A stretch of DNA of 64,000 nucleotides, taken from contig CAVWOU010000001.1 of NCBI GenBank assembly GCA_963756745.1, forward strand, positions 151,531-215,530, read 5' to 3'. The position numbers and the translations under genes are program-made. Within the stretch, counting starts at the first letter, position 1. Every line of letters begins with the position of its first letter. The notes beneath the pieces were generated by a model. That model worked only from the letters and a program-made list of their open reading frames with translations, was not told where the DNA came from and searched no databases. This document shows, in pieces, positions 1 through 40,912 of this stretch. This stretch comes from an uncultured Thermoleophilia bacterium (lineage in GTDB: Bacteria > Actinomycetota > Thermoleophilia > Solirubrobacterales > 70-9).

Positions 1-395
1 ATCGGGCCCATGCCGATCCACCGCTGCGCGCCGTTCGCCTCGATTCCCACGCCCGGGACCATCACTGCGACAAGGAGCACGAACGAGCCCGCGAGCACCA
101 TCGGGGTCAGGGTCCGGGCGGGGCGCAGGCCGCGCACCGACAGCACTCGCATCGCGAGCAGCCCGAGGGCTCCGAACAGCAGCGTGCGCTTGAGGTACTC
201 CGCCCCGTCGCCGCCCTCCCCGAGGATCGAGGTCGTCGAGCTGGCGCTGAACACCATGACCGCCCCGAACGCGAGCAAGCAGAGCGTCGCGGTTAGCAGC
301 AGCGAGTATTCGACCGGCGGGCTCGCGGCGCGGGTGCGCTTTCGCGCGCCGGTCTCCGGAGCCCTGACCCGGTGCGCCGCGGACACCGTGCTCAC
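1..395 (-). CDS. ftsW: FtsW/RodA-family (SEDS) cell-division protein, N-terminal part only; gene runs off the left edge of the window
   Basis: Not in ORF track (truncated). My translation of the minus strand from GTG at 395 gives VSTVSAAHRV...EYSLLLTATLCLLAFGAVMVFSASS...PGVGIEANGAQRWIGMGP, with SEDS-like TM helices. GTGA start/stop overlap with murD. Expected dcw position. Confidence 0.8.
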   Translation of the reverse strand, partial: MSTVSAAHRVRAPETGARKRTRAASPPVEYSLLLTATLCLLAFGAVMVFSASSTTSILGEGGDGAEYLKRTLLFGALGLLAMRVLSVRGLRPARTLTPMVLAGSFVLLVAVMVPGVGIEANGAQRWIGMGP

Positions 396-1804
396 CGCAG
401 TCCCTCCACAAGTGCCCTGAAGTGATCGCCCCGCGCCTCGAAGTCGCGATAGGCGTCGAAGCTCGCGCACGCCGGTGCGAGCACGACGACTTCGCCGGGG
501 CCCGCGGCCGCCGCGGCCGCGCGGACGGCGTCTTCGAGCCCGGCGCTGCGATGGAGAGCGACCCCCGCCTCGCGCGCCGGCGCGAGGTCGCGCTCGAGAC
601 GCTCGGCGGCATCGCCGATCAAATAGCACGCGACGCAGCGCTCCGCCACGGGCTCGGCGAGGTCCTCGAAGGCCTCACCCTTCAGCGACCCGCCGAAGAT
701 CGCGTGCACCCCGCCCTCGAACGAGCGCAGCGCGGCCGTCGCGGCCGCGACGTTGGTCGCCTTGGAGTCGTTGACGTAGCTGACGCCGTCGATCTCCCCG
801 ACCACCTCGAGACGGTGCGGGACGCCGGGGAAGCTCTCGAGCCCCTCGCGCGCCGCGTCGGCGGGGACGCCGGTCGCGAGCGACGCCGCCGTCGCCGCCA
901 TCGCGTTCTCGACGTTGTGCGGCCCGAGCAGCAAAATCGAGTCGGCTTCGATCACCGGCTCGTCGCCCGAGAATATGACCCCGCTTCGCAGCGACACCGC
1001 GCAGTCGGGATCAAGCCGTCCGTCTCCTCCGCTTTGCGTCCGGCGGCGGCCGGGTTCCGCGCGGGACGCGCAGAACGCGACTCGTCGCGCGCACCCTCCG
1101 AGGTCGCGACTGCGGAGCGCCGGCTCGTCGGCGTTGTAGACGGCGACGTCGTCGTTTCCCTGGTGGGCGAAGATCCGCAGCTTCGCGTCGAGGTACTCGT
1201 CGAGCGTCGGATGGCGGTCGCGGTGGTCCGGGGCTAGGTTCAAGAACACGGCGCACTCGGGCGCGAACGCGTCCGCGTCCTCGAGCTGGAAGCTCGAGCA
1301 CTCGCACACGACGGTGGCGTCGCGATCAACCGCGCCCGCGAGCGACGCGAGCGGGGTGCCCACGTTTCCGGCCACCGCAGTGGGAAGCGCCGCCTGGCGG
1401 CGGATGTGGCCGATCAGCTCGGTGACCGTCGTCTTTCCGTTCGTCCCCGTGACTGCGATGAAGGTGTTGGGGATCATTCGCCAGGCGACCTCCAGCTCGC
1501 CGATCACGGCCCTGCCTCGGGTGCGCGCCGCCTCGACCACGGGCGCGTGGTTCGGGACCCCTGGGCTCTTGAGCACGCAGCGGGCACGCTCGACCAGATC
1601 GACTCCGTCGACATCCAGATTGACTTCGACGCCCGTGCCCGTCAGCCCTTCCGCCTGCTCGGGGTGGCCCGCGTCGCACCCGATCACCTCCTCCCCGCGC
1701 TCGGCAAGCGCGCGCGCGACGGCGCTCCCGGAGCGGGCGAGGCCGACGACCAGGAACGGCCCCTCGGGCAGGGGCGGGCGCGGCTTCGGCGGCGGCGTGC
1801 TCAC
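392..1804 (-). CDS. murD: UDP-N-acetylmuramoylalanine--D-glutamate ligase
   Basis: ORF 392..1882. Rossmann motif FLVVGLARSGSAVARAL, Mur ligase P-loop IAVTGTNGKTT, NLAPDHRDRH. Start trimmed to in-frame GTG 1804 behind AGGTGA, because the upstream 26 codons lie in the repeat element. Confidence 0.9.
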   Translation of the reverse strand: MSTPPPKPRPPLPEGPFLVVGLARSGSAVARALAERGEEVIGCDAGHPEQAEGLTGTGVEVNLDVDGVDLVERARCVLKSPGVPNHAPVVEAARTRGRAVIGELEVAWRMIPNTFIAVTGTNGKTTVTELIGHIRRQAALPTAVAGNVGTPLASLAGAVDRDATVVCECSSFQLEDADAFAPECAVFLNLAPDHRDRHPTLDEYLDAKLRIFAHQGNDDVAVYNADEPALRSRDLGGCARRVAFCASRAEPGRRRTQSGGDGRLDPDCAVSLRSGVIFSGDEPVIEADSILLLGPHNVENAMAATAASLATGVPADAAREGLESFPGVPHRLEVVGEIDGVSYVNDSKATNVAAATAALRSFEGGVHAIFGGSLKGEAFEDLAEPVAERCVACYLIGDAAERLERDLAPAREAGVALHRSAGLEDAVRAAAAAAGPGEVVVLAPACASFDAYRDFEARGDHFRALVEGLR

Positions 1805-1816
1805 ATCATCACCTGG

Positions 1817-1882
1817 GTTCGCGCTCGGCCCAACATCTCTTTCCCCGCCCGGGCGGGATCCTGGAATCCGCCTCGCGCTCAC
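1817..1882 (-). repeat. Copy 1 of a ~66-nt intercistronic element (mraY-murD spacer)
   Basis: gttcgcgctcggcccaacatctctttccccgcccgggcgggatcctggaatccgcctcgcgctcac. About 61/66 identical to 10789..10854 by hand alignment. Contains the palindrome CCCGCCCGGGCGGG. Confidence 0.85.
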
Positions 1883-1927
1883 GGGGCTAGTTTCGCGCCC
1901 GCGGGGCCCATGCCGATAGACACGTCG

Positions 1928-2950
1928 CTAGTTCCCGACCGAGTTCTGGTACAGCGTGTACCCGATTCCCGAGCACACCGCGGCGACGATCCAGAACCGC
2001 AGCATGATCTTGGTCTCCGACCACGCCAGCAGCTCGAAGTGGTGGTGGATCGGCGCCATCAGCAGCACGCGGCGCCGAAACAGCTTGAAGAACAGCACCT
2101 GAAGCGCGACCGAAAGCGCCTCGATCACGAAGATCCCACCGAGGATGATCAGCAGGAGCTCGGTCTGCGTCATCACCGCGAGCGCTCCGATAGCGCCCCC
2201 GAGGCCTAGCGATCCCGTGTCGCCCATGAACACCGACGCCGGGAAGGCGTTGAACCACAGGAACCCCACCGACGCGCCGACGAGCGTCGCCGAGAGCACC
2301 GCAAGGCCCTCCTGTCCGTTGGTGATCGTGATCGCGGTGTAGGCGAGCAGGACGATCGCGCACGAGCCCGCAGCGAGGCCGTCGAGGCCGTCGCTGAGGT
2401 TGACGCCGTTGCTCGCCCCGGCGATCACGAGAAAGATCAGCAGCATGTAGAGCACGGGGCCGATGTGGATCTGGGCGTCTACGATCCTCACGTCAATCCT
2501 CGGGTCGAGGCCCACCTCCTGGGTCGCGACCCACCACAGGCAGAGCGCGAGCGCGATCTGGATCAACAGCTTCCATCTCGCCGGCAACCCCAGCGAGCGC
2601 CGCTGCGAGATCTTGATCCAGTCGTCCGCAAAACCGACGGCGGCGCTCGCGATCGCGATGCCGAACACGGCGAGGCTCTCCGTGTCGCGGTCCGAGAGCA
2701 CGAGGTAGGGCACCGAGATCGACACGAAGATGATCAGCCCGCCCATCGTCGGCGTCCCCGCCTTCGAGTGATGCTCCTGCGGCCCCTCCTCGCGGATCTG
2801 CTGGCCGAACTCGCGCACGCGGATCCACTCGATGAACTTGGGGCCGAGGAAGATGCAGATGAGCATCGCCGCCATGCCCGCGATCAGGACCTCGCCGCGG
2901 TCGATCGCGGCCGCGGCGAGCTGCGCGGCGGGAAGCTCGGGCGCGCTCAT
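1928..2950 (-). CDS. mraY: Phospho-N-acetylmuramoyl-pentapeptide transferase
   Basis: Motifs GTPTMGG, NLSDGLDGLA, VFMGDTGSLGLGG, APIHHHFE. Start MSAPEL at 2950 forms an ATGA overlap with the murF stop. Confidence 0.95.
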   Translation of the reverse strand: MSAPELPAAQLAAAAIDRGEVLIAGMAAMLICIFLGPKFIEWIRVREFGQQIREEGPQEHHSKAGTPTMGGLIIFVSISVPYLVLSDRDTESLAVFGIAIASAAVGFADDWIKISQRRSLGLPARWKLLIQIALALCLWWVATQEVGLDPRIDVRIVDAQIHIGPVLYMLLIFLVIAGASNGVNLSDGLDGLAAGSCAIVLLAYTAITITNGQEGLAVLSATLVGASVGFLWFNAFPASVFMGDTGSLGLGGAIGALAVMTQTELLLIILGGIFVIEALSVALQVLFFKLFRRRVLLMAPIHHHFELLAWSETKIMLRFWIVAAVCSGIGYTLYQNSVGN

Positions 2951-4332
2951 CAATCCTGTTTCGAGCGCCGGGGCGCGCGCATCGCAGCGAGCTCGTCGCT
3001 GACCAGCTCGAGCCCGACCGAGCGCGAGCCCTTGACCAGCACTGTGTCGCCCGGTTCGATCAGGGCGTGGGCCGCGGGCACCGCGGCGCGCGCGTCCGGC
3101 ACCCACTCGTCGGGCGCGTAGTGCTGCGCCAGCTCGCCCACGCCGACGATCGGCCCGATCCCTAGATCGCGCGCGTGCGCCCCGGCCTCCCGGTGGTACG
3201 CGGGCGCATCGGCGCCGAGCTCGGCCATCTCGCCGAGCACCGCGAGCCGCCGTCCCTCGACCCGCAGCGTGGCCAGATGGTCGAGCGCAGCCCGCATCGA
3301 GATCGGATTCGCGTTGTAGCAGTCGTTCACGATCACCACGCCGTCGCGCAGCTCGAGCAGCTCGCCCCGAAGGCGCGAGAAGCCTATCTCCGGCGCCCGC
3401 TCAGACATCGCGGCAAGCGGAGCATCGAGTGCTATCCCGATCCCGATCGCCGCGAGCGCGTTGGTCAGGTTGTACGCCTCACCGAACGGGAACCGGAACT
3501 CGTGCTCCCCGTGCGGGGTGCCGATCTGGGCCATGGTCGTCGCGCCGTCGGAGCGGGAATGCTGAACGAACACGTCCCCCCCGGGCCCGAACGTGATCGT
3601 CACCAGCTGCTCGTGCAGGTGCGGCTCCAGCGCCTCGGTGTCGGCTGGGACGACCGCTCTGCCACGTCCGCGCAGACCGTCGAGCATCTCCGCCTTCGCC
3701 TCGGTGATCGCCTCGAGCGTCCCGAGGAGCTCGAGGTGGACCGGCCCGATATTCGTGATCGCGCCGACGTCGGGCTCGGCGATCTCGCACAGCTCCGCGA
3801 TCTGGCCGAGTCCCCGCATCGCCATCTCCAGGACGATCACCTCGGTCTCTTCCGGCGCCGAGAGCAGCGCGAGAGGGAGCCCGATCTCGGTGTTGTAGTT
3901 CTCTGGGCTCGCGTGGACCCGAAACGGGAGCAGCGTCCGGCAGATGTCCTTCACCGACGTCTTCCCGGTCGAGCCGGTGATCCCCACGACCGGACAGCCG
4001 ACACGCCGGCGCCACTCCGTCGCCAGGCGCTGAAGGGCGCGCAGCGGCTCCGGCGCGGAGAGGATCCAGCCGTCGCCCGGCGTGTCGCGCAGCGATCGCG
4101 CCCGGTCGGGAGTCACGACCACGCCCCAGGCGCCCGACTCGAGCGCTCGCGCCGCGAACTGGCCTCCGTCGGCGTGCTCGCCCCGCAGCGCGAAGAACAG
4201 GTCGCCGTCCGCGAGGAGTCGCGAGTCGGTCACGGCGCGCTCGGGATGACCACCGCCGCCCCTTCGCGCGACGTCGGCCCCCGCCGCCTTCGCGAGCCCC
4301 TCAGGTTCGAGCCGGATCACGGCGACGTCCAC
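2950..4332 (-). CDS. murF: UDP-N-acetylmuramoyl-tripeptide--D-alanyl-D-alanine ligase
   Basis: 460-aa ORF. P-loop VVGITGSTGKTS, DCYNANPISMRAAL. Position between murE and mraY. Confidence 0.9.
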   Translation of the reverse strand: MDVAVIRLEPEGLAKAAGADVARRGGGGHPERAVTDSRLLADGDLFFALRGEHADGGQFAARALESGAWGVVVTPDRARSLRDTPGDGWILSAPEPLRALQRLATEWRRRVGCPVVGITGSTGKTSVKDICRTLLPFRVHASPENYNTEIGLPLALLSAPEETEVIVLEMAMRGLGQIAELCEIAEPDVGAITNIGPVHLELLGTLEAITEAKAEMLDGLRGRGRAVVPADTEALEPHLHEQLVTITFGPGGDVFVQHSRSDGATTMAQIGTPHGEHEFRFPFGEAYNLTNALAAIGIGIALDAPLAAMSERAPEIGFSRLRGELLELRDGVVIVNDCYNANPISMRAALDHLATLRVEGRRLAVLGEMAELGADAPAYHREAGAHARDLGIGPIVGVGELAQHYAPDEWVPDARAAVPAAHALIEPGDTVLVKGSRSVGLELVSDELAAMRAPRRSKQD

Positions 4333-4333
4333 C

Positions 4334-5821
4334 TCACGCTGTCGCCATCAAGCGGCGCAGCTCCTCGGTCGCGACCTCCCTGTCGTCGAACGGGACCTTC
4401 CTGCCGTTCTCGAACTCCTGGCCCTGCTCGTGGCCCTTGCCCGCGATCACGACCGTGTCGCCGGCGCTCGCCTCGCCTAGCGCGAGCGCGATCGCGGCGC
4501 GACGGTTCGGCTCGACCTCGACGGCGTCCCGTCCCGGTACGCCGGCGAGTACGTCGGCGATGATCGCCTCGGGGTCCTCGGACCGCGGGTTGTCCGAGGT
4601 GACGACGCAGAGGTCCGAGAGCTCGGACCCGATCGCGCCCATCAGCGGGCGCTTCTCGCGGTCGCGGTCCCCCCCGCACCCGAACACGCAGATCACGCGC
4701 CCCTCCGTGACCCTGCGCGCCGCGCGCAGGACGTTCTCGAGCGAGTCCGGGGTGTGCGCGTAGTCGACGAGCACCGCGAACGGCTGCCCCTCGTCGACTG
4801 GTTCGAAGCGGCCCGGGACGCGCTCGGCCCCTCGCAGCGCCGCCGCGCCGGCCTCGATTCCGACCCCCAGCGCGCCCGCGGACGCCAGGGCGGCGAGGGC
4901 GTTCTCGACGTTGAAGTGCCCGGGGAGCGGCATCTCGACGCGAACCTCCCCATCCGGGGCGAGGCAGCGAAAGCGCGTGGAGCCGGCGTCGAACTCGACG
5001 TCTTCCGCGCGGAAGTCGGCCGCATCCCCAGAGGCAGAGAAGGTCACCGGGGCGGATCCGTGATCGCGAAGCTCGTCGATCAAGCGTCGCCCGTACTCGT
5101 CATCGGCGTTGATGACCGCAGTCCCCCGCGAGGACGCGTCACCGTCCTCGCGGACTTCGAAGAGCATCCGCTTCGCGGCGAAGTAGTCCTCCATGTCGGA
5201 GTGAAAGTCGAGGTGGTCCTGCGTGAGGTTGGTGAACGCCCTGACGTCATAGGAGATCCCCTCGCTGCGGCCGAGCGCGAGCGCGTGCGAGGAAACCTCC
5301 ATCACGCACGCTTCGTCGCCGCCGTCGAGCATGCGCCGGAACGTCGCCTGGAGGTCGATCGCCTCCGGAGTGGTTCGGACGACCTCCTCCTCGCGCCCGC
5401 CGACCACCCGCTTCACGGTCCCGAGCAGCCCCGTCTGGTGACCCTCGGCCTCGAGGATGCGTCGGAGCAGGAACGCCGTCGTCGTCTTGCCGTTCGTCCC
5501 CGTGATCCCGACGACCTTCAACTCGGCGGTGGGATCTCCCCAGAACCGCACAGCGAGCGGTCCCATCGCCGCCCGGGCGTCGGGGACCTTCACTTGCGGG
5601 ACGGCGAGGTCGAGCTCGCGCTCGACGACGAGCGCCGCGGCGCCGCGCTCGACGGCACCGGGCGCGAACTCGTGCCCGTCAGCCGTCATTCCGCGCACGC
5701 AGAAGAACAGCGTGCCGGGGCCGACGCGCTGGCTGTCGTACGCGAGATCGGCGATCGCGACGTCCGGATCGCCCCTGACGATCTCAGCCTCGACGCCGAC
5801 GATGAGCTCGGCGAGCCTCAT
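4334..5821 (-). CDS. murE: UDP-N-acetylmuramoyl-L-alanyl-D-glutamate--2,6-diaminopimelate ligase
   Basis: 495-aa ORF. VVGITGTNGKTTT, DYAHTPDSLENVL, GCGGDRDREKRP. Confidence 0.95.
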   Translation of the reverse strand: MRLAELIVGVEAEIVRGDPDVAIADLAYDSQRVGPGTLFFCVRGMTADGHEFAPGAVERGAAALVVERELDLAVPQVKVPDARAAMGPLAVRFWGDPTAELKVVGITGTNGKTTTAFLLRRILEAEGHQTGLLGTVKRVVGGREEEVVRTTPEAIDLQATFRRMLDGGDEACVMEVSSHALALGRSEGISYDVRAFTNLTQDHLDFHSDMEDYFAAKRMLFEVREDGDASSRGTAVINADDEYGRRLIDELRDHGSAPVTFSASGDAADFRAEDVEFDAGSTRFRCLAPDGEVRVEMPLPGHFNVENALAALASAGALGVGIEAGAAALRGAERVPGRFEPVDEGQPFAVLVDYAHTPDSLENVLRAARRVTEGRVICVFGCGGDRDREKRPLMGAIGSELSDLCVVTSDNPRSEDPEAIIADVLAGVPGRDAVEVEPNRRAAIALALGEASAGDTVVIAGKGHEQGQEFENGRKVPFDDREVATEELRRLMATA

Positions 5822-5839
5822 GGACGCGATTCTAGGTCG

Positions 5840-7495
5840 CTACTGCGGAGGGATACCGAGGTGCGACAGCGCGAACTCGGCGATCTCGCCGAACGCCGGC
5901 GCCGCGACGTCGGCCCCGTAGTAGCTCCCCTGCGGCTCGTCGACTACGACGGTCACGAGGATTTGCGGATCGCTCGCGGGCACGAAGCCCGCGAACGACG
6001 CGACGAAGTCGGACTTCGAGTAGCCGCCGTTCTTCGCCTTCTGCGCGGTGCCCGTCTTCCCGGCGAGCGTGTAGCCGGGGACCTCGACCTCGGCCGCGGT
6101 CCCGCCGGGCGCCAGCACGCCCTCGAGCATCTCCCGCAGTCGCGCCGATGTCCGAGAGCTGATCACCCGTTGCCCGGTTGGCCGGTCGACGGGGTCGTCT
6201 CCCTCCCGGACGACGAGCCTCGGCGCCCGCAGAATCCCGCCGTTTGCGATCGCCGCGTAGCCGGCGGCCATCTGGATCGGCGTCACCGCGAGTCCCTGCC
6301 CTATCGACATGGTGCCGAGCGTGGAGCCCGAGTAGTCGTCGAGCGCGGGAACAATCCCCTGCTCCTCGGCGGGGAACGCGATCCCGGTCGGCTCGCCGAA
6401 CCCGAAGCGCCGCACCCAGCTGTCGAACGTCCCCGCCCCCACCGACTCCCCGACCTTGACGGCGCCGACGTTCGAAGACTGGGCCAGGATCTCGGCGACC
6501 GTGAGGCGGACGGTCGCCCGCGGGTGCGACTCCTCGATCACCCGGTCGGCGACGTCGATCGAGGGCGGGAGGGTGAAGTCGGTGTCCGGGTTCACCGTGT
6601 CCTCCTCGAGCGCGGCCGCGACGGTGAACGCCTTGAAGGTCGACCCCGGCTCGTATGTGAACCCGGTGGCGTGGTTGGCGAGCGCCTCCTCGGACACTGA
6701 CTCGAGGTCGGTGGGGTCGGCGGGCGGCCAGTTCGCCAGCGCGAGCACCTCGGCCGACCGCGGGTTCATCACCACGATCGTCGCGCCCTTCGGGTCGTAG
6801 GTCCGCCCGACCCCGGCGAGCACGTCCTCGGTTTGCGCCTGGATCTCGGCGTCGAGCGTCAGCTTGATGTCACCACCGGTCGCCTGGTTGTGGAGCGTCT
6901 CGCGCTCGATCGTGTCCCCGAGCGCGTCCCGGGTGATCTGCGTCTCGCCGTCGGTCCCTCCGATGAGGTCCTCGTAGTGGCTCTCGAGCCCGGTGAGTCC
7001 CTGGTTCTCGGTCCCGACCGTCCCGATAACCTGGGCCGCGAGCTCGCCCTGCGGGTAGGTGCGGCGGCTGTCGGGGAGCAGCCCGATGCCGTCGATCTCG
7101 AGCTTGCGCACCCGCTCCGCCGCCACGACGTCGAGCTCGCGGCGCAGGTACTCGAACCCCGACTCGCGGTTCGACAGGGCGTCGAAGATCTGGTCCTCGG
7201 GGACGTCGAGGAGCGGAGCCAGGCGCCGGGCGGCGTCGGAGGGATCGTCGACCTGGTAAGGGGTCGCGAACACCGTCGCGGCCTCCTCGGACGCCGCAAG
7301 CGGATCGCCTTCGCGATCGAGGATTCGGCCGCGGAAGCCGGGCACGGTGACGGTCTCGGTCTGTTGGCTGCGCGCGTTCGCCCTCAGCTCGGCCCCGCGC
7401 ACGCCCTGAAGCCACACCGCCCGCACCAGCACGATCGCGAACAGGAGCAGGAACGCGGCGAACAGGAGGCCGATGCGCCGCTCGACTAGTCGCAC
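5840..7495 (-). CDS. ftsI: Class B penicillin-binding protein / division transpeptidase
   Basis: TM anchor IGLLFAAFLLLFAIVLV. Transpeptidase motifs GSTFK, SSN, KTGTA. Start set to GTG 7495 behind GGGAGAAGG. The 227 upstream codons of ORF 5840..8176 are Arg/Pro-rich and overlap ftsL. Confidence 0.9.
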   Translation of the reverse strand: MRLVERRIGLLFAAFLLLFAIVLVRAVWLQGVRGAELRANARSQQTETVTVPGFRGRILDREGDPLAASEEAATVFATPYQVDDPSDAARRLAPLLDVPEDQIFDALSNRESGFEYLRRELDVVAAERVRKLEIDGIGLLPDSRRTYPQGELAAQVIGTVGTENQGLTGLESHYEDLIGGTDGETQITRDALGDTIERETLHNQATGGDIKLTLDAEIQAQTEDVLAGVGRTYDPKGATIVVMNPRSAEVLALANWPPADPTDLESVSEEALANHATGFTYEPGSTFKAFTVAAALEEDTVNPDTDFTLPPSIDVADRVIEESHPRATVRLTVAEILAQSSNVGAVKVGESVGAGTFDSWVRRFGFGEPTGIAFPAEEQGIVPALDDYSGSTLGTMSIGQGLAVTPIQMAAGYAAIANGGILRAPRLVVREGDDPVDRPTGQRVISSRTSARLREMLEGVLAPGGTAAEVEVPGYTLAGKTGTAQKAKNGGYSKSDFVASFAGFVPASDPQILVTVVVDEPQGSYYGADVAAPAFGEIAEFALSHLGIPPQ

Positions 7496-7512
7496 GGGCC
7501 TTCTCCCGATCC

Positions 7513-8088
7513 CTACGGCGCCACCACGGGTGGCGCCTCCGTCGTCGGCGCGGCAGCGAGATCCGGCGACGCGGCCAGCTCCCCCGCCTGGAGGCGGCGG
7601 GCGGCTACCTCGGGATCCCCCTTGTCCGGGCTCAGGAACACGGTCTCGCCAGGATCCGGCATCTCGAGGCCGAGGCTGGCGGCGATCGACTCGACCCGCT
7701 TGCTCGCGAGCTTGTTCGCGAGCTGGGCTCGCAGCACCGAGTTGTCGCGCTCGAGCGCCGCGCTGCGCTCCGCGACCTCGCCGGCCTTGGTGCTGTAGCT
7801 GAGGCTGAGGACGTTGAGCGCGACGATTCCGGCCAGCAGCGTGGCCAGCACGGCGATCCACGCCCGCCCGCGGGTCATCCTCACCATCAGCCCGGAGTCG
7901 GCCAGATCGCCGACCGCGCCCGCGGTTCTCCCGACCGCCACCGGGATCAGCTGGGCTGCCCCGGCGGCGGGAGTAGTGCCGCGCGCCTGAGCCCGCGGCC
8001 GCGGACGTGGCCGCGGTCTCGCGCGCGCGGCGGAGCGGGGAGCGCGCCGGGGCGCCCTCCTCGCCGTTGCGGGAGCCGCCGCCGGCAT
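7513..8088 (-). CDS. ftsL: FtsL-like bitopic division protein
   Basis: Single TM (AWIAVLATLLAGIVALNVL) followed by a coiled-coil-like segment (AERSAALERDNSVLRAQLANK). Lies between rsmH and ftsI. ATG 8088 forms an ATGA overlap with the rsmH stop; alternative start at ATG 7887. Confidence 0.55.
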   Translation of the reverse strand: MPAAAPATARRAPRRAPRSAARARPRPRPRPRAQARGTTPAAGAAQLIPVAVGRTAGAVGDLADSGLMVRMTRGRAWIAVLATLLAGIVALNVLSLSYSTKAGEVAERSAALERDNSVLRAQLANKLASKRVESIAASLGLEMPDPGETVFLSPDKGDPEVAARRLQAGELAASPDLAAAPTTEAPPVVAP

Positions 8089-9041
8089 CAGGCCTCGTCC
8101 CCGGCATCCGCGATCTTGACCGCGGCGCGCAGGTGCGCCGAGGCGGCACGCGGGTTGCGTTCGACCTCATCGGCACTCGGCGCGACCGCCCGCCGGGTGA
8201 GGAGCCGGGCGTCGGGGGTGCGGCCGCACACGCACACCGGGACCTCGGGAGGGCACACGCAGCCCTTCGCGCGATCGGCGAGAAAGCGCTTCACGCGGCG
8301 GTCCTCGAGCGAATGGAAGGAGATCGCCGCGAGGCGGCCGCCGTCGGGCAGCAGGTCCCACGCGGCGGGCAGCGCGCGATCGAGCGACTCGAGCTCCGAG
8401 TTGACCTCGATCCGGATCGCCTGAAAGGTTCGCTTCGCCGGGTGGCCGCGACCGAAGCGCGCGGCCGGGGGCAGCGCCTCCCTGATCGCCTCCACGAGCT
8501 CCGACGTCGTCTCGAGCGGGCGGCTCTCGACGATCCCATGTGCGATCCGCCTCGCGTGGCGCTCCTCCCCGTGAACGCGGATGATCTCGGCGATCCGGCG
8601 CTCGGGCCACTCGTTGACGATCTCGAGCGCAGACAGGTCCTGGTCGGGGTCCATACGCATGTCGAGCGGCGCGTCGTATGTGTAGGAGAACCCGCGCTCC
8701 CACGCATCGAGCTGGAGCGAGGAGATCCCGAGGTCCATGTAGATGAAGTCGGGACGCGGGCCCTCCGTGGCGAGCGTCTCGAGCGCTGAACCGAAGTCGT
8801 CGCGCACGAACTCGGTCTCGCACGGCGCTTGAGACGCGAACGAGTCGTAGCGCTCGGCGGCCGCCGGGTCGCGGTCGATGCAGATCAGCGTCCCGGTCGC
8901 GCCGAGGCGTTCGGCCACGAGCTCGGCATGCCCCCCGCCGCCGAAGGTGCAGTCGACGCCGAGCTCGCCGGGGGCAGCGTCGAGCACCGCGACCAGCTCG
9001 CTCGCGAGGACAGGTACGTGCTCGGTTGGCATATAGGACAT
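8088..9041 (-). CDS. rsmH: 16S rRNA (cytosine1402-N4)-methyltransferase
   Basis: HVPVL, DCTFGGGGH, IDRDP, DLGISSLQLD, SFHSLEDRRVK. Start MSYMPTEH at 9041. An in-frame ATG at 9155 (ATGA overlap with the mraZ stop) would add 38 basic residues. Confidence 0.9.
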   Translation of the reverse strand: MSYMPTEHVPVLASELVAVLDAAPGELGVDCTFGGGGHAELVAERLGATGTLICIDRDPAAAERYDSFASQAPCETEFVRDDFGSALETLATEGPRPDFIYMDLGISSLQLDAWERGFSYTYDAPLDMRMDPDQDLSALEIVNEWPERRIAEIIRVHGEERHARRIAHGIVESRPLETTSELVEAIREALPPAARFGRGHPAKRTFQAIRIEVNSELESLDRALPAAWDLLPDGGRLAAISFHSLEDRRVKRFLADRAKGCVCPPEVPVCVCGRTPDARLLTRRAVAPSADEVERNPRAASAHLRAAVKIADAGDEA

Positions 9042-9151
9042 TTTCAATGCCGCTCGAATCCTCCGCTCCCGCTCGCTCGCACCCACATCACCGGCAGCCT
9101 TGCTCGCTCGCTCCCGCGTCCGGTTCGAGCGGGTTTGCGCTGGGCTCATGG

Positions 9152-9586
9152 TCATCCCTCTCCGCCGAGGCCCTCGGCGATCTCGTGGGCGTGGGCGTCG
9201 ACCTCGCTGTCCTCCGCGCCCCACGTTTCGGGACTCCAGATCTCGAGGTGCTCCCCGACACCGACGATCACGCACGGCCCGTCGAGGCCCGCGTGCTCGA
9301 TCAGATGCCCGGGAATCCGGATGCGGCCCGCCGAGTCGAGCCTCTCGTCGACCGAGTGTGCGTAGATGCGCCTGCGCATGCGGCGCTGGTCGCGGCTGAA
9401 GGTGCTGAACTCTGCCATGTCGCGCTGCTCGAAGCGCGTGAACTCCTGCAAGGGAAAAACCTCGACGCAGGGGTCGAGGCCCTTCACGAGAATCACCCCG
9501 TCTGCGAGCGCCGAACGGAAGCGCGCCGGGATCGTCAGCCGGTCCTTCGAATCGAGACTGTGCTCGTGCTGCCCGTGAAATGCCAA
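9152..9586 (-). CDS. mraZ: Transcriptional regulator MraZ
   Basis: 144 aa with two SpoVT/AbrB-like repeats (DSKDRLTIPARFR and DSAGRIRIPGHL). First gene of the dcw cluster. Confidence 0.95.
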   Translation of the reverse strand: MAFHGQHEHSLDSKDRLTIPARFRSALADGVILVKGLDPCVEVFPLQEFTRFEQRDMAEFSTFSRDQRRMRRRIYAHSVDERLDSAGRIRIPGHLIEHAGLDGPCVIVGVGEHLEIWSPETWGAEDSEVDAHAHEIAEGLGGEG

Positions 9587-9633
9587 CCTGGGGTCTCCGT
9601 GGGTGAAGGGAAATCGGACCGGAAGGTGAGAGT

Positions 9634-9676
9634 GGGCCGGGGTGATGAGGTGGGAGGAACCTCACCACCCCGGCCC
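9634..9676 (-). promoter_or_regulatory. 17-bp hairpin in the mraZ 5' UTR
   Basis: Minus-strand RNA GGGCCGGGGUGGUGAGG-UUCCUCCCA-CCUCAUCACCCCGGCCC. The single non-Watson-Crick position is a G-U pair on the mraZ sense strand but an A-C mismatch on the other strand. Confidence 0.45.
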
Positions 9677-9694
9677 TGGTGATGGAAACCGCGT

Positions 9695-9726
9695 GCCACG
9701 CTAACCCACAACGCCCCACTTTTCAA
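9695..9726 (-). promoter_or_regulatory. Candidate dcw promoter overlapped by three MraZ-box direct repeats
   Basis: Minus strand TTGAAA-17nt-TAGCGT. GTGGG (9719-9715), GTGGG (9709-9705) and GTGGC (9699-9695) recur with exact 10-nt periodicity, as described for MraZ operators. Confidence 0.55.
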
Positions 9727-9933
9727 CACGATCCCGATCGCGCGATTCCAGCCGATCCGTCGGACGGAATTGCTACCGGTTACCCGGAGGGCCGGAATCC
9801 CGCTTCGTAGAGCCGATTCCGTGTCTTGCGACGTGGTCGTTGAGTGGCTGGTAGGGCTCGTCAGCCTGCAATCTGGGTTGCAGGAAGCTGCCCTTAGGCG
9901 GCGCTGCGCCCGACCCCGACCGCGCGCTGTCGC

Positions 9934-10776
9934 TCAGAACCCGCCGAGCAGCACGTCCGAGTTCGCGATCAGCGCGGCGGCGATCATCAGGAGAACGGAC
10001 GGAACCAGCACGAGCGCGACGACGAGCTGGATCTTCGGCGCGGCGCGGGCGGCGTCCTCCTCGATCCGGCGGCGCTGATCGAGCCTGAGCGCGGTGGCCT
10101 GCTGGCGGAGTTGGTCAGCGAGCGGCGAGCCGTACCGACTCGAGCGCTCGAGCGCGGCTGCCAGCGACGCGATCTCGCCGCCGGGTATCCGCTCGCGCAG
10201 ACCGTCGAGCGCGGCGAGTTGGGATGCGCCGCACTCGATCTCGGCCGCGGCGACCGCGAGCTCGCTGGCCAGCGGTCCGGTCGTGCCCTCCGCGATTTCC
10301 CCCAGCACGGCGCCGGGCCCGCGACCGGCCTCCGCGGCGACCGCGAGCAGGTCAAGCGCGTCCGGAAGCGCGAGGACGAGCCGATCGCGGCGCCGGCGCG
10401 ACTCGCGCTCGAGCAGGGCATCGGGAAGAAGGAATCCCGCCGCGGGCAACGCGATCGCGACGAGCAACGACAGCCGCCCGGGCGCGGCGGGCGCGGCGAT
10501 CGCCGCGAGGCCGGCGCCGAGCACCGCGCACCCCGCCTTCGCGGCGAGCACGGCCGGAACGCTGACGCGGTCGGAAAGCCCCGCGCGCAGGAGGCGGCGG
10601 GGGATTCCGAGCGGGAGCGCGGTTTCCGCGATCGTGCGGACCCGTCCCCCGCTTATCGCGCCGAGCACGTGTCTCGACGCCGCGCGCAGCTCGTCCCCCC
10701 TGCTTCCCGCGACCTCCCATGCGGCCGCGAACCCGAGCAGCACAGCGGCGCCCGCGAGCGCCGCCGCCGCACTCAT
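9934..10776 (-). CDS. tadC: Tad/Flp pilus inner-membrane platform protein (T2SSF domain)
   Basis: 280 aa. N-terminal TM, cytoplasmic T2SSF-like core, C-terminal helices (KIQLVVALVLVPSVLLMIAAALIA). Second T2SSF gene after cpaF. Confidence 0.8.
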   Translation of the reverse strand: MSAAAALAGAAVLLGFAAAWEVAGSRGDELRAASRHVLGAISGGRVRTIAETALPLGIPRRLLRAGLSDRVSVPAVLAAKAGCAVLGAGLAAIAAPAAPGRLSLLVAIALPAAGFLLPDALLERESRRRRDRLVLALPDALDLLAVAAEAGRGPGAVLGEIAEGTTGPLASELAVAAAEIECGASQLAALDGLRERIPGGEIASLAAALERSSRYGSPLADQLRQQATALRLDQRRRIEEDAARAAPKIQLVVALVLVPSVLLMIAAALIANSDVLLGGF

Positions 10777-10788
10777 CCCATCACCTCA

Positions 10789-10854
10789 GTTCGCGCTCGG
10801 CCCACCATCAAATTCCCCGCCCGGGCGGGATCTTGGAATCCGCCTCGCGCTCAC
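10789..10854 (-). repeat. Copy 2 of the ~66-nt intercistronic element (tadB-tadC junction)
   Basis: gttcgcgctcggcccaccatcaaattccccgcccgggcgggatcttggaatccgcctcgcgctcac. The tadB stop codon (10851-10853) lies inside its first bases. GAGGTGA and the tadC ATG follow it. Confidence 0.85.
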
Positions 10855-11723
10855 ACGCCTTCCGGCCCGATCCGGCTCAGCTGCCGGATCGCGGCGAAGC
10901 CGACGAGCTGCAGCGCGGCGGCGAGCGCCAGCAGCACGCTCGCCGCGGTGTCGGACAGCAGCCTGGCGACGAACCCCGGCTCGACGAGCTCGGCGAACAG
11001 CGCCGCACCGGTCGGCATCGCCACCACGAGCAGGCCCGTGAACCTCGCCTGCGCGGTCGCCGAGCGCGCGTCGGCCGCCACCCGGTCGCGCTCCGCGGCC
11101 GCCGCGGCATAGCGCCGCAACAGTCCCGCGAGATCGCCGCCGCCGAGCTGCTGAGAGAGCAGCGCCGCCGCGAACGAGTCCACGCGCGGCGACTTGAGCC
11201 TGCGCTGGAGCGCCGAGAGCGCCTCGGCGGTGGAGCTGCCCAGCTCCAGGTCCGCCCGCACGCGTGCCGTCTCCACTCCCGGCGGGCCGTCGAGCGTGCC
11301 CGCGGCGGCGGCGAGCGCGGCGCGAACGGAGCGCCCGCCCGATAGCGCGTCGGCGACCGCCGTCGCGAGAGCCGGAAGGCCTCGTTCGACCCTGCGCCGG
11401 TACCGGGCGCGCCGCGTCGCCAGCGCCCACGCGGCGGCGGCGGGTCCCGCGAGCGCCAGAGCCGACGCGGGACCAGGGCCGGCGACCAGCAGCGCGATGG
11501 CGAAGAACCCACCCGTCCCGACCACCCCGAGGCGCCGGCGCTCGGCCTCGGTGGGGACGTACCCCTCCCTGCCGGCGCGCAGCAATGGGTCGACGGCGGC
11601 CGCTAGCCAGCGCGCGACCGAGGGCATCGCCAGCACCGCCTCGCGCGCCGCCACCGCCGCCATCCCGCCGGCCAGTGCGGCGAGCACCACCGGCAGGATC
11701 CCGGGCTCGGCGCCCGGCGTCAC
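10851..11723 (-). CDS. tadB: Tad/Flp pilus inner-membrane platform protein (T2SSF domain)
   Basis: ORF 10851..11780 trimmed to GTG 11723, 2 nt after the cpaF stop. TM helices at both ends with a T2SSF-like central region. Confidence 0.8.
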   Translation of the reverse strand: MTPGAEPGILPVVLAALAGGMAAVAAREAVLAMPSVARWLAAAVDPLLRAGREGYVPTEAERRRLGVVGTGGFFAIALLVAGPGPASALALAGPAAAAWALATRRARYRRRVERGLPALATAVADALSGGRSVRAALAAAAGTLDGPPGVETARVRADLELGSSTAEALSALQRRLKSPRVDSFAAALLSQQLGGGDLAGLLRRYAAAAAERDRVAADARSATAQARFTGLLVVAMPTGAALFAELVEPGFVARLLSDTAASVLLALAAALQLVGFAAIRQLSRIGPEGV

Positions 11724-11725
11724 CG

Positions 11726-12901
11726 CTACCCGGCGGTCGCGGCGGGCGCACTGTCGATCGCGCCCGGGCCGCGCCGCCACACCCCGCGCACCCCGACCCC
11801 GCCGGCGATCTTGACGACCTCGGCTATCTCCACCACCTTCCGCGAGCCGTCGCCGCCGCGCGCGAGGTGCACGACGATGTCGATTCCCCGCGCGACCTGC
11901 TCGCGGATCGCGTCGTGCGGCAGCCCCACCCCGGCCATCAGCGCGAGCGTCTCGAGCCTTCGCAGCGAGTCCTCCGGGGAGCTGGCGTGCACTGTGGAGA
12001 GCGCGCCGTCGTGGCCGGTGTTCAGCGCGGTGAGCAGATCGAGCGCCTCGGCGCCCCGCACCTCGCCGATCACGATGCGGTCGGGACGCATCCGCAGCGC
12101 ATTGCGCAGCAGGTCGCGGATCGTCACCTCGCCGCGCCCCTCGACGCTTGCGGGGCGCGTCTCGAGGCGGACGACGTGGGGCTGGCGCAGCGCGAGCTCG
12201 GCCGCGTCCTCGATCGTGATCACCCGCTCCTCGGAGTCGAGGTACCCCGACAGGGCGTTGAGCAGGGTCGTCTTGCCCGACCCCGTGCCCCCGCTGATCA
12301 GAATGCTGCGCCGCGCGCGCACCGCCGCGGCGAGCAGGTCGCGCGCCTCCGCCGTGAGGCTGCCCGAGGCGACGAGCTCCTGCGGGCCGGGACGCGCGGC
12401 GGCGAAGCGCCTGATCGACAGCGACGCGCCGCTCACCGCGAGCGGCGGGATCACGACGTTGACCCGCGAGCCGTCGTCGAGGCGGGCGTCCGCCATCGGG
12501 CTGAGCTCGTCGATCCGCCGCCCGAGCGGGGTAAGTATTCGCTCGATCGCGTCGCGCAGCGCGCGCTCGGACGCGAAGCGGACCTCGGTGCGCTCGATCC
12601 TTCCCCTCCGCTCTACGTAGACCTCTTCGGGGCCGTTTACCATCACCTCCTCGACCATCGGGTCGGCCATCAACTCCTCGAGCGGGCCGAGACCGACGGT
12701 GTCGCGGAGGATCAACTCGACGATCCGCTCCCTCGTCGGCGCGGACAGGATCGCCGCCTCGCGCGCCACGAGGCCCTCGACCGCGACGGGCAGCTCGTCG
12801 AGATCCAAGCGACCTGCCGCCGCCTGCGCGCGGCGTCTCTCTATCAGCCGCCGGCGAAGCTGCGTGGCCAGGGCCTCGGCGTGGTCATCGTGGGAAGCCA
12901 C
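11726..12901 (-). CDS. cpaF: Tad/Flp pilus assembly ATPase CpaF/TadA
   Basis: GLGPLEELMADPMVEEVMVNG. Walker A ISGGTGSGKTT, Walker B RIVIGEVRG, His box TGHDGALSTVHA. Start set to GTG 12901; the 285 upstream codons of ORF 11726..13759 are antisense to the SDR gene. Confidence 0.9.
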   Translation of the reverse strand: MASHDDHAEALATQLRRRLIERRRAQAAAGRLDLDELPVAVEGLVAREAAILSAPTRERIVELILRDTVGLGPLEELMADPMVEEVMVNGPEEVYVERRGRIERTEVRFASERALRDAIERILTPLGRRIDELSPMADARLDDGSRVNVVIPPLAVSGASLSIRRFAAARPGPQELVASGSLTAEARDLLAAAVRARRSILISGGTGSGKTTLLNALSGYLDSEERVITIEDAAELALRQPHVVRLETRPASVEGRGEVTIRDLLRNALRMRPDRIVIGEVRGAEALDLLTALNTGHDGALSTVHASSPEDSLRRLETLALMAGVGLPHDAIREQVARGIDIVVHLARGGDGSRKVVEIAEVVKIAGGVGVRGVWRRGPGAIDSAPAATAG

Positions 12902-12945
12902 ACTGAGATGAGCGCCGGGAGGTCGAGGCTCTCCCCCCAACCACT

Positions 12946-12971
12946 CGCGCGATCTGCGAGCAGATCGCGCG
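12946..12971 (-). terminator. Perfect 12-bp inverted repeat with 2-nt centre, downstream of the SDR gene and upstream of cpaF
   Basis: cgcgcgatctgc-ga-gcagatcgcgcg. No U-tract. Could be an I-shaped terminator or an operator for the tad genes. Confidence 0.45.
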
Positions 12972-12984
12972 GTCTCGTGAGGGC

Positions 12985-13935
12985 TCACCCGAGACTGTTT
13001 CTGAACCCCTCGCGCCAGCTTGGGTGGGCGGGTTGCCAGCCGAGCTCGCGCCTCGCCTTCGCGTTCGAGGCGCCGCGGATCTCTGTCATCAGGGCTACCG
13101 CGATCGGGCCTCCAACCAGCCGGCCCACCCAGACGGGAAGGCGTCGCGGCGGCGGTGCCCCGATCGCGTCGGCGAGCGCCGGGAGCCACTCCGACACCGG
13201 CGCGGGATCGTCGTCGACGATGTTGTAAATCCCCGGCGCGCCACCCTCGACCGCCACCAGTGTGGCGGTGGCGGCGTCGTCGATGTGCACGAATGACCAC
13301 ACGCCCGTCCCCCCGTCGAGGATCGGGAAGCGCCGCTTGCGGATCGTCTCCGGGAGCGTGTCGTTTGAGTCCCGGGCGAGCGAGGTCCCGGGGCCGTAGA
13401 AGCCCCCGTAGCGCAGTACCACTCCTTCCAGCCCCTCGGCACCCGTGACCGAGCTCTCGAGGTAACGGATCGCCGCGATCGTGGCGAGCCCGCCGATCGG
13501 AGGGCGCGTGTCGAGCGGATCGTCCTCGGTCTTCACCGGACCGCCCTCGCGCGCGTACGGCCACCCGGCGAAGCTCTGGGCGACGAACCGGCGGGCACCG
13601 GCCTCGATCGCGCCGGCGAGCAGGTTGTCCGTGCCGTCGGTCCGAAGCCGGTTGGTGAGCACGAACTCGCGGTCGAACTTCCGCGGATTGCCGCTCAGAC
13701 CGGTCAGCGCGGTGAGCTGATGGACCACGACCTCGGGCGCGGCGTGCCGAACGGCGCATACGACGGCGTCACGATCGAGCGCGTCGCCCACAACCGGCTC
13801 GGCGCCGGACCGCTTGATCGCGTCCGCTTTCTCCGGCGTGCGCGTCAACGCGGTGATTGAGTGGCCCGCCTCGACCAGCTTCGGCACCAGCCGCGCGCCG
13901 ATCGCCCCGCTTCCCCCGGCGACGAAGACTCTCAT
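12985..13935 (-). CDS. NAD(P)-dependent epimerase/dehydratase-type SDR
   Basis: MRVFVAGGSGAIGARLVPKLVEAGH (GxxGxxG Rossmann fold). 316 aa. AAAGGAG RBS. Confidence 0.85.
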   Translation of the reverse strand: MRVFVAGGSGAIGARLVPKLVEAGHSITALTRTPEKADAIKRSGAEPVVGDALDRDAVVCAVRHAAPEVVVHQLTALTGLSGNPRKFDREFVLTNRLRTDGTDNLLAGAIEAGARRFVAQSFAGWPYAREGGPVKTEDDPLDTRPPIGGLATIAAIRYLESSVTGAEGLEGVVLRYGGFYGPGTSLARDSNDTLPETIRKRRFPILDGGTGVWSFVHIDDAATATLVAVEGGAPGIYNIVDDDPAPVSEWLPALADAIGAPPPRRLPVWVGRLVGGPIAVALMTEIRGASNAKARRELGWQPAHPSWREGFRNSLG

Positions 13936-13957
13936 CTGAAGCTCCTTTCAACAATCA

Positions 13958-13975
13958 ACCTACCAACCGGTAGGT
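13958..13975. promoter_or_regulatory. Candidate TetR operator in the divergent SDR/TetR spacer
   Basis: ACCTACC-aacc-GGTAGGT, 7-bp arms, within the 48-nt spacer between two divergent starts. Confidence 0.4.
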
Positions 13976-13983
13976 AAGTTATC

Positions 13984-14625
13984 ATGTGCGCCATGCAGGC
14001 AGCGGTCGCGACGAGTCGGATCAAGGGGCCGGAGCGGCGCAAGCGGATCCTCGAAGCCGCCGCCGAGGGGTTCGCCGCCCGCGGCTACCACGCGACATCA
14101 GTCGGACAGATCGCCGAGGCGGCCGGGATCACTAAGCCGGTCATCTACGACCACTTCCCCTCCAAGCGGGACCTGTTCGTCGCGCTGCTCGAGCAAGCCC
14201 GGGAGGAGCTACTCGCGCTCGGCGTCGAGGCGATGCGCGCCGACGCGCCGCCGGAGGAGCGCGTGCGGAGCGCCGTCGACGCATTCTTCTCCTATGTCAG
14301 TGCGCACCCCGCCACCGCGCGCGTCCTGTTCACGCCGCCGGTCGGCGAGCCCGACCTGCTCGCCGAGTCACAGCGCGTCCAAGCCGACGCGACGGCGGGG
14401 ATCGCCGCGCTGCTCGCGGCTGAGCCCGGGCTGTTCGCGGGGGCGCGCGACCGGCGGCGACGCGTCGAGATGCTGAGCGAGTTCTTCAAGCAGGGGATGC
14501 ACGGCCTCGCGATCTGGTCGATGGATCATCCCGGTGTCCCCCGCCGTGCACTCGTTGAGACGGCGATGGCCCTGGTTTGGGTCGGGCTGCGGGCGCAGCT
14601 CTCGCCGGCGGACCCGGACTCCTAG
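13984..14625 (+). CDS. TetR/AcrR-family transcriptional regulator
   Basis: N-terminal HTH RRKRILEAAAEGFAARGYHATSVGQIAEAAGITKPVIYDHFPSKRDLF. Confidence 0.9.
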   Translation: MCAMQAAVATSRIKGPERRKRILEAAAEGFAARGYHATSVGQIAEAAGITKPVIYDHFPSKRDLFVALLEQAREELLALGVEAMRADAPPEERVRSAVDAFFSYVSAHPATARVLFTPPVGEPDLLAESQRVQADATAGIAALLAAEPGLFAGARDRRRRVEMLSEFFKQGMHGLAIWSMDHPGVPRRALVETAMALVWVGLRAQLSPADPDS

Positions 14626-14634
14626 GATTTACGC

Positions 14635-15612: not shown

Positions 15613-15626
15613 GTAGGGTCTAGGTC

Positions 15627-15690
15627 GTGAGCATGAGGCTCTACCAGGGTGTGGGCGGGCGGGGAAGTTGATGCTGGGCCGAGCGCGAAC
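15627..15690 (+). repeat. Copy 3 (diverged) of the ~66-nt element, upstream of the macro-domain gene
   Basis: gtgagcatgaggctctaccagggtgtgggcgggcggggaagttgatgctgggccgagcgcgaac. The 3' 33 nt match copies 1 and 2 closely. The 5' half has diverged and the palindrome is lost. Confidence 0.7.
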
Positions 15691-15696
15691 GTATTG

Positions 15697-16203
15697 ATGT
15701 CCGAGATCGAGGTTCGCCAGGCGGACATCACCAAGCTCGAGGTCGACGCGATCGCCAACGCCGCGAACACGCAGCTCAAGCACGGCGGCGGCGTCGCAGC
15801 GGCGATCGTTCGCGCCGGTGGCCACATCGTCCAGGAGGAAAGCGACGGCGTGGCGCCGATCGCGCTTGGTGACGCGGTCGAGACCACCGCCGGCGACATG
15901 CCCGCGAAGTGGGTGATCCACGCCGCGACAATGGAGCTCGGCGGTCCGACCTCCGCGGAGATCATTCGCAGCGCGACCGCGAGCACGCTACGCAGGGCGG
16001 ACGCGCTCGGGGCGACTTCGCTCGGCCTGGTCGCCTTCGGCACCGGCGTCGGGGGCTTCCCGCTCGACGACGCCGCGCGGATCGAGGTCGAGGAGGTCCG
16101 ACGTCACCTCGACGACGGGAGCGGGATCGAGCGCGTCGTCTTCGCGGTCTTCGGCGAGGAAGCACGGGGGGCGTTCGAGCGAGCGGTTGGCGAGTCCGAC
16201 TAG
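15697..16203 (+). CDS. Macro-domain protein (ADP-ribose binding / O-acetyl-ADP-ribose deacetylase-like)
   Basis: MSEIEVRQADITKLEVDAIANAANTQLKHGGGVAAAI. Start moved to ATG 15697 because upstream codons lie in the repeat element. Confidence 0.85.
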   Translation: MSEIEVRQADITKLEVDAIANAANTQLKHGGGVAAAIVRAGGHIVQEESDGVAPIALGDAVETTAGDMPAKWVIHAATMELGGPTSAEIIRSATASTLRRADALGATSLGLVAFGTGVGGFPLDDAARIEVEEVRRHLDDGSGIERVVFAVFGEEARGAFERAVGESD

Positions 16204-32364: not shown

Positions 32365-32540
32365 CGGCCGGAGCAGGTCTCCTGGCTTCCGGGATGAGCG
32401 CCGCGCCTTCCCAGGGCGACTGGTGGCCGCCCAAGTGGCTGACAGCGCGTCGTGCGACGCTCCCTTACCCGGTCACAGTGGCGGGACCGCGCCGGTCTTG
32501 CACCGGACTTCCCTGGGCCACCGGCCGTATGTGGCCGGGG
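32365..32540 (-). promoter_or_regulatory. Cobalamin (B12) riboswitch
   Basis: Minus strand GGUGGCCCAGGGAAGUCCGGUGCAAGACCGGCGCGGUCCCGCCACUGUGACC (core, revcomp of about 32471-32521). B12 box AGCCAGGAGACCUGC (revcomp of 32373-32387), 13 nt before the ATG at 32360. TATAGA -10-like hexamer at about 32541-32548. Confidence 0.9.
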
Positions 32541-40770: not shown

Positions 40771-40912
40771 AGGCACCTCTCTTTCTCGTGCCTACGGGGT
40801 TAGCTGTCGGGCTCGCGCGAAAGAGCTGCGCTACCGGATTCTCCTATCGGATTCGCCCCAGGGCCGTCAAGCCCTTGCTCACCGGCAAGTTCGCCTCTTG
40901 CCGACGACCACC

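Follow-up and report, generated by a model that had tools for sequence, protein, structure and literature searches.

A sequence of about 66 nucleotides occurs three times within 16 kb of the genome of an uncultured Thermoleophilia bacterium, each time directly 5' of a start codon and in the same orientation relative to it, which raises the question of what kind of sequence comes to sit so regularly in front of genes as different as murD, tadC and a macro-domain gene. The sequence-only reading of the surrounding DNA (the 'window', that is, the whole 64,000-nt stretch that was analysed, corresponding to C1:151531-215530) held that the fixed position and orientation do not fit a randomly inserted REP or MITE, and offered an internal promoter, a processing site or a translational leader in its place. 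Here we searched the full genome of this Solirubrobacterales lineage (2.71 Mb, 70% G+C, 15 contigs) and those of its relatives, and we consider it likely that the element is mobile but non-autonomous, a repeat of the MIRU kind that inserts in a single orientation exactly at the start codons of genes.

All three copies are found in the window at the positions and in the orientations first given for them, and each is followed within 12 nt by its start codon (Table 1). Copies 1 and 2 are 92.4% identical over 66 nt; copy 3 has both arms and the 3' 35 nt in common with them and differs in the middle. Pfam bears out the names given to the neighbouring genes, the murD product having Mur ligase domains, and identifies the flanking pairs as mraY and murD, the two T2SSF genes tadB and tadC, and a BNR-repeat gene followed by the macro-domain gene. 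The ribosome-binding sites that had been placed in the gaps behind copies 1 and 2 are indeed present, as CCAGGTGAT and TGAGGTGAT, and their GAGGTGAT is a perfect complement of the 3' tail of this genome's own 16S rRNA, GGATCACCTCCTT (...GGATCACCTCCTTTCT). Copy 1 is inserted directly 5' of the murD start (covariance-model score 62 bits), copy 2 supplies the TGA stop of tadB with its 5' GTGA (10851-10854), and copy 3 lies 14 nt past the stop of the upstream BNR-repeat gene (80 bits).

Table 1. Repeat copies, their mini-ORFs and the start codons that follow them, with other features mentioned in the text (window coordinates, unless a contig is named).
Feature	Position	Strand	Remarks
Copy 1, hairpin-apex subtype A'	1805..1882	-	Body 1817-1882 (66 nt) and 12-nt linker CCAGGTGATGAT, 1805-1816
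murD GTG start	1802-1804	-	12 nt past the body of copy 1; context GTGAGCACG
Copy 2, subtype A'	10777..10854	-	Body 10789-10854 and linker TGAGGTGATGGG, 10777-10788; between tadB and tadC
Mini-ORF of copy 2 (VSARRIPRSRPGGEFDGGPSAN, then stop)	10786..10854	-	From GTG overlapping the tadB stop to the TGA opening the linker
tadC ATG start	10774-10776	-	12 nt past the body of copy 2
Copy 3, G-rich-apex type B	15627..15696	+	Body 15627-15690 and 6-nt linker GTATTG; 5' of macro-domain gene
Mini-ORF 1 of copy 3 (VSMRLYQGVGGRGS, then stop)	15627..15671	+	14 codons and TGA
Mini-ORF 2 of copy 3 (MLGRARTY, then stop)	15671..15697	+	ATG overlaps mini-ORF 1 stop (TGATG)
Macro-domain gene ATG start	15697-15699	+	6 nt past the body of copy 3
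c-di-AMP (ydaO) riboswitch	40774-40997	-	Rfam match
Cobalamin riboswitch	32375-32514	-	Rfam match
tRNA	54608-54680	-	Rfam match
tRNA	54733-54816	-	Rfam match
Second repeat family, this genome	C10:568129-568179, C9:78532-78582, C3:33754-33797, C15:65690-65724, C12:34457-34493, C14:81902-81923		Outside the window

The ~66 nt recognised at the outset stand as the body of the element, but the real unit is longer and also takes in a linker that reaches the start codon. From 5' to 3', it comprises GTGA, a 5' arm (GTGAGCGCGAGGC), an apex, GGGCGGGGAAnTTGATGnT, a 3' arm (GGGCCGAGCGCGAAC), the linker and an RTG start, with a conserved TTTGATG between apex and 3' arm. The linker measures 5-12 nt, has three recurrent forms (TGAGGTGATGnn, ACCnGTGAT and NNNTTG/ACCTG) and carries a Shine-Dalgarno-like GGTGAT. 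Two types of copy can be told apart by the apex: the 13 copies of type A (66-68 nt) have a GC hairpin, CCCGCCC-n-GGGCGGG, and the 26 of type B (62-64 nt) have in the same place GGGTGnGGGnGGGCGGGG, a canonical G-quadruplex (G4) motif on the sense strand that is present in 35 of 63 distinct elements from six species (window example 15650-15667). Once G4 energies are allowed, the predicted minimum free energy of type B goes from about -21 to about -42 kcal/mol. Two solo half-copies were also seen, near position 114602 of C5 (- strand) and at C14:61039-61067 (+ strand), one being a 5' half that ends past the apex and the other a 3' arm with the linker TGAGGTGATGTGA.

Across the genome, the abundance of the element is far beyond chance. 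There are 39 full-length copies, the same 39 being found by nhmmer, with a profile of the 34-nt 3' core, and by a covariance model built later; a control search with the reversed pattern gave no matches. According to the gene calls of a codon-usage caller made for this analysis, 38 of the 39 are co-oriented with the gene that starts just downstream (binomial p = 7e-11), at about -40 to +110 nt from the copy and mostly at +4 to +12. The fixed position and orientation from which the question arose therefore hold genome-wide, and so does the placement inside operons, most copies lying there on a stop/start overlap. The lone exception to co-orientation (C10:464415) abuts only the 3' end of its upstream gene. 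Two copies that are the same element in the same flanks on two contigs (C10:426439 and C13:1277) probably reflect a single locus that was assembled twice, or else a recent duplication; an identical stretch is also common to contigs C2 and C3.

We compared the three window sites with their counterparts in the other nine genomes of the genus. The tadB-tadC junction is without the element in G002 and G008 (..|GTGAGCGCG..), in G009 (TTGA), in G005 (GTGA) and in G003 (TGATG). The murD site has none in G004 and G008 (...GCGCGAAACTAGSC..|GTGAGCACG), and in G004, G008, G007 and G002 the native mraY-murD spacer (GGCGCGAAACTAGSC...) runs directly into GTGAGCACG. The macro-domain site has none in all eight sister species (..|ATGGCC/GTGGCG-GAG-ATC). 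All three window copies are thus lineage-specific insertions, which fits with the finding that copies 1 and 2 are most closely related to one another and are the sole members of their subtype. A pattern search recovered 28 further copies from five sister species of the genus, and when their flanks were mapped onto this genome about 20 proved to be adjacent flanks with no element between them, three sites being shared. In one pair, the empty GCAGC|GTGAGCGGGG corresponds to the filled GC|GTGAGCGCGAGG...GATGTT|GTGAGCGG; in another, the empty TCG|TGAGCTTCG corresponds to the filled ..TCG|TGAGCGCG...GTTT|TGAGCTTCG; a third empty site reads GGG|GTGAACGAG. Judged by these filled and empty sites, the element is evidently mobile and start-codon-targeting. 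The contention that it is no randomly inserted REP or MITE thus has to be given up in so far as it denied mobility, since we are dealing with a mobile, MITE-like repeat whose regular placement stems from site-specific insertion at start codons, not from immobility.

The junctions occupied in the window hold other sequences of their own. Just upstream of murD lies a spacer motif, GGCGCGAAACTAG(G/C)C (window 1883-1927, - strand), that is conserved in most genomes of the genus; an older relic copy of the element in the mraY-murD spacer was considered and rejected, this being a native motif conserved across the genus. The length of the spacer ranges from about 25 nt up to 309, 428 and ~1900 nt in G009, G005 and G003, so that this dcw junction is an insertion hotspot. 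An unrelated second repeat family (..GCCGAGCATCGGGCGCGAAGCGCCCGACTGCGAGGCGACAGGCAGGT..; Table 1), with a GNRA-like capped hairpin and no match in Rfam, sits at the tadB-tadC junction of G004 (L044) and at the murD start of G001 (L166), and in G004 it has its own bridging ORF, TGATG...TGATG.

What does the element recognise? Its insertion sites are mostly RTGA stop/start overlaps, usually RTGAGC. Empty sites are RTGAGC in 11 of 13 cases, compared with 39% of the 227 RTGA junctions of this genome, an enrichment that is significant only after the empty sites and class-I copies are added, and one that points to the element's own 5' end, GTGAGCGCG, as the preferred target context. The starts of the downstream genes alone gave no ground for further specificity past RTGA, RTGAGC being already so frequent among RTGA junctions, and on that evidence the idea was rejected. 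An empty site has one RTGA(GC) and a filled site two, that is, a tetranucleotide direct repeat; the exact boundaries, and the length of any target duplication, are ambiguous: 36 of 39 copies keep the 5' G, and the 3' R is A or G about equally. The first codons downstream also differ between empty-site orthologues and filled sites (GTGAGCGCG>ATGAGTGCG in tadC, ATGGCC>ATGTCC in the macro-domain gene, ATGTGG>GTGAGCGCGAGCCCGTGG at the L003 site), so that the element may itself deliver the new start codon.

Some sites appear to have been used more than once. Two of the three sites shared between species hold type A in one and type B in the other, with different linkers (L011 and C6:203727; L012 and C9:49441), and reflect either independent insertions in the same site or an apex swap by conversion between copies. 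In relatives, tandem copies occur in which the second starts on the RTGA of the first (L042, L061, L078, L082, L131), some of them adjacent or partial; tandem arrays are absent from this genome, where all copies are single. At L042 (G081:C176:279-342), on a 2-kb contig, a copy close to the consensus (84 bits) is succeeded by the beginning of another; G081 is binned to another genus, and the presence of L042 there could represent mis-binning or horizontal transfer.

Two mini-ORFs run across the element in the pattern GTGA...TGATG...RTGA. A co-oriented upstream gene directly abuts the element, its stop being the TGA in the first four bases, GTGA, in 25 of 39 copies by the gene calls and in 28 when ORFs of at least 80 aa are counted; the other 11-14 copies have no upstream gene ending in the element, and coupling cannot be its role there. 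Mini-ORF 1 (VSARL...GRGI) extends from the GTG to the TGA of TTTGATG, over 14 codons in type B and 15 in type A, types that differ by 3 nt and so keep the frame. Of the 63 distinct elements, 61 have a stop at the TTTGATG position and 60 offer a restart codon no more than two in-frame codons further on; only 40 retain the mini-ORF 2 ATG itself. Mini-ORF 2 (MLGRAR...) spans the 3' arm and the linker, and its stop is the TGA of the downstream gene's RTGA in 25 of 39 copies (p = 8e-5 against an expectation of 1/3, the copies being non-independent); in the class with 6-nt linkers, which includes copy 3, it ends in TGATG. All these frame regularities come down from master copies and are not independent trials. 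A pairing of the loss of the mini-ORF 2 ATG with the gain of a start at the next codon was looked for and is not significant (p = 0.22).

The window copies show three variants of this arrangement. Copy 1 has lost the internal TGA (AAAGAGATG), and its GTG is in frame into murD (ORF 392-1882); the TGA at +1 of the murD GTG is the in-frame stop of mini-ORF 2. The apex of copy 2 is 1 nt shorter, and the first mini-ORF runs on until it meets the TGA at the head of the linker, with 9 nt left before the tadC ATG. Copy 3 has both mini-ORFs, and the TGA of the second overlaps the ATG of the macro-domain gene, again as TGATG.

We suggest that the mini-ORFs, together with the ribosome-binding site, form a translational relay that probably keeps the downstream gene translated. 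A ribosome would end the upstream gene at the TGA of the element and restart on the overlapping GTG; mini-ORF 1 would then be read through the hairpin, with a stop and restart at TGATG; and mini-ORF 2 would be read through the 3' arm and the Shine-Dalgarno sequence, to stop on the TGA that overlaps the RTG of the downstream gene. The original translational coupling of the two genes would thereby be kept, the Shine-Dalgarno sequence carried by the element would also permit independent initiation, and insertion would be nearly neutral, even before essential genes. Of the three functions offered at the outset, the translational leader comes closest to this.

A different explanation, which we think improbable, is that the element serves the host as a cis-regulatory RNA, whether a processing or stability hairpin or a tuner of operon stoichiometry, which was spread by transposition and is now under selection. 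There is structure to build on, and the changes in its stem count for the mobile-repeat reading as well. The arms, at least 90% conserved, form a stem of 15 positions that includes two tandem G·A/A·G mismatches; in the 63-sequence alignment, four pairs of the outer stem are changed on both sides compared with 0.3 in shuffles (0/500), and six sequences have G-C/C-G in place of the inner G·A/A·G, compensatory changes that are few and could be shared by descent. The mismatches are purine-purine on the sense strand only, and this strand gives a better fold than the antisense in every one of the 63 elements, an excess that G-richness alone could cause. Copies are also more conserved than their flanks (96.9% against 76-84% in the orthologous pair L015/C12:39016), and non-orthologous copies in different species are up to 100% identical (C11:2059 and L005), which suggests constraint or concerted evolution. 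Intercistronic REP hairpins, moreover, modulate operon expression, according to references in PMC3184786. However, gene conversion or constrained master copies explain the conservation equally well, and the folding energy is unexceptional: that of the window copies equals that of dinucleotide shuffles (z = -0.3 to +0.4), and exceptional stability is therefore rejected. Whether a given junction has the element differs freely from one sister species to another, and the downstream genes are without a common function, comprising murD, tadC, the macro-domain gene and genes for an enoyl-CoA hydratase, a histidine kinase, an isochorismatase, FtsW/RodA, an HtrA-like protease, a flavoprotein disulfide reductase, HemA, EF-Ts (tsf), a DHH phosphoesterase and an acyl-CoA dehydrogenase. 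Genes so unrelated do not make a regulon.

Far less probable is a portable internal promoter, in which the GATGnT singled out by the sequence-only reading would be a -10 box or TTGATG a -35. While five or six copies are placed between divergently oriented genes and just ahead of one of them, and TTGATG equals TTGACA at four of six positions, the copies have no sigma-70-like consensus: window positions 1-17000, all three copies included, contain no sigma-70-type site (-35/-10 with 16-18-nt spacing), and no TAnnnT is found 16-19 nt past TTGATG in the aligned copies. Most copies, furthermore, sit on a stop/start overlap inside operons with the upstream stop in their first bases, and GATGnT, with its conserved TGAT, is explained as the junction between the TGA stop and the ATG restart of the two mini-ORFs. 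Least credible of all is a riboswitch-like or protein-binding leader controlling a regulon. In its favour is a motif that is both conserved and structured and that lies 5' of start codons throughout; against it, the genes are heterogeneous, the sites differ between sister species and the apex is interchangeable (hairpin, G4 motif or short loop). A search of Rfam gave no match at E <= 1 in window positions 1-17000 and none at the gathering threshold on the elements. Elsewhere in the window, Rfam identifies at the gathering threshold a c-di-AMP (ydaO) riboswitch, a cobalamin riboswitch and two tRNAs (Table 1).

We return to the reading of the element as a mobile repeat of the MIRU kind, and to how it compares with known systems. 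For MIRUs, both accounts drawn on below cite Supply and colleagues, 1997 (Molecular Microbiology, volume 26, page 991).

Two accounts (PMC12548453; PMC3184786) describe MIRUs as mobile repeats that insert at start codons and have an internal ORF whose coupling to the gene involves -4 spacing, together with filled and empty sites, tetranucleotide repeats, imperfect inverted repeats and ORF ends that overlap the neighbours. By those accounts, the likeness is extensive. Both are dispersed repeats of 40-100 bp that number ~40 per genome, in hosts that belong to the Actinomycetota; both are placed between genes that are co-transcribed and point the way the genes do, with bridging ORFs whose ends overlap the stop and start of the neighbours (-4); in both, sites are found filled or empty and show a tetranucleotide repeat, the termini are imperfect inverted repeats and the interior has GC-rich repeats; tandem copies occur, which here means adjacent or partial second copies in relatives; and, as far as those accounts go, a transposase is known for neither. 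The differences are nonetheless clear. The host here is of the Thermoleophilia/Solirubrobacterales, and the likeness drawn here is one of architecture; within this genus, the bridge consists of two mini-ORFs that meet at TGATG; two tandem G·A mismatches lie in the stem formed by the arms, whose apex module is interchangeable between hairpin and G4 motif; and this genome has single copies in place of VNTR arrays.

MITEs such as Correia/NEMIS of Neisseria and the RPEs of Rickettsia, which are tolerated inside reading frames, are likewise short and non-autonomous with inverted-repeat arms, and resemble the element in insertion polymorphism between relatives, co-transcription with genes and a design that limits harm to the host. 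In contrast to them, the 3' arm here is subterminal, with the 5-12-nt linker beyond it, and orientation and start-codon target are strict, unlike those of ordinary MITEs; no cognate IS with matching ends was found, and the element does not combine terminal inverted repeats matching a resident IS with a target duplication of fixed length. REP/BIME repeats, REPIN-RAYT (Y1) and the PATEs of IS200/IS605 are also extragenic hairpin repeats that can sit between cistrons, with orientation-specific insertion and without clear target duplication, but the present element has no GTAG-type head and no paired inverted doublets, and it lies at the 5' ends of genes, not at their 3' ends.

The search for a mobilising enzyme points the same way for the last of these groups: the Y1 transposase (PF01797) is absent from all 10 genus genomes, control genomes being positive, and mobilisation by RAYT/IS200 is thus rejected. 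IS110 and DDE_Tnp_1 were rejected as partners because their presence does not track the element-bearing genomes; this genome has IS110 fragments only and no DDE_Tnp_1. A search for a long autonomous element with the same ends gave only chance arm-like matches and the two solo half-copies.

The strict pattern, in its 64-68-nt form, was found in six of 10 genomes of the genus and in none of 31 outside it. The covariance model and a pattern of the termini also pick out relatives of 49-65 nt that share the termini, both in the family's other genera and among many Solirubrobacterales MAGs; in about half of the clear ones a single ORF begins at the 5' GTG and stops on the RTGA of the following gene. 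The matches seen in other phyla are coincidental hits in coding DNA. So is the lone match on a viral contig, and carriage by phage is accordingly rejected. In 300 Actinomycetota genomes searched with the covariance model, none of the matches listed, which were the best 17 candidates per genome, lay outside the family. Our search of the literature found no description of such repeats for Solirubrobacterales. A wider proposal, which we advance tentatively and hold to be doubtful as a whole, is that these elements constitute an order-wide lineage of undescribed, translation-neutral gene-junction parasites that home by identity of GTGAGCGCG with the commonest start context, are moved without the usual transposases, use the G·A-mismatch stem as a recognition structure and are perhaps part of a class convergent across Actinomycetota. 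If true, homing by GTGAGCGCG identity would explain both the self-insertion seen in tandem arrays and the repeated use of one junction.

These repeats have practical consequences too. The first reading's remark that the element inflates ORF calls is borne out, and in the annotation of MAGs such elements also shift predicted starts and create spurious peptide families, the 26-codon extension of murD, false or real, being an example. Their presence/absence polymorphism is a ready strain marker, and they are, in effect, natural 'bicistronic design' cassettes. For the biology of the group, the element would mean that the MIRU design is not confined to mycobacteria but recurs in a deeply separate, uncultured actinobacterial order, where the same frame problem appears to be solved differently than in mycobacterial MIRUs.
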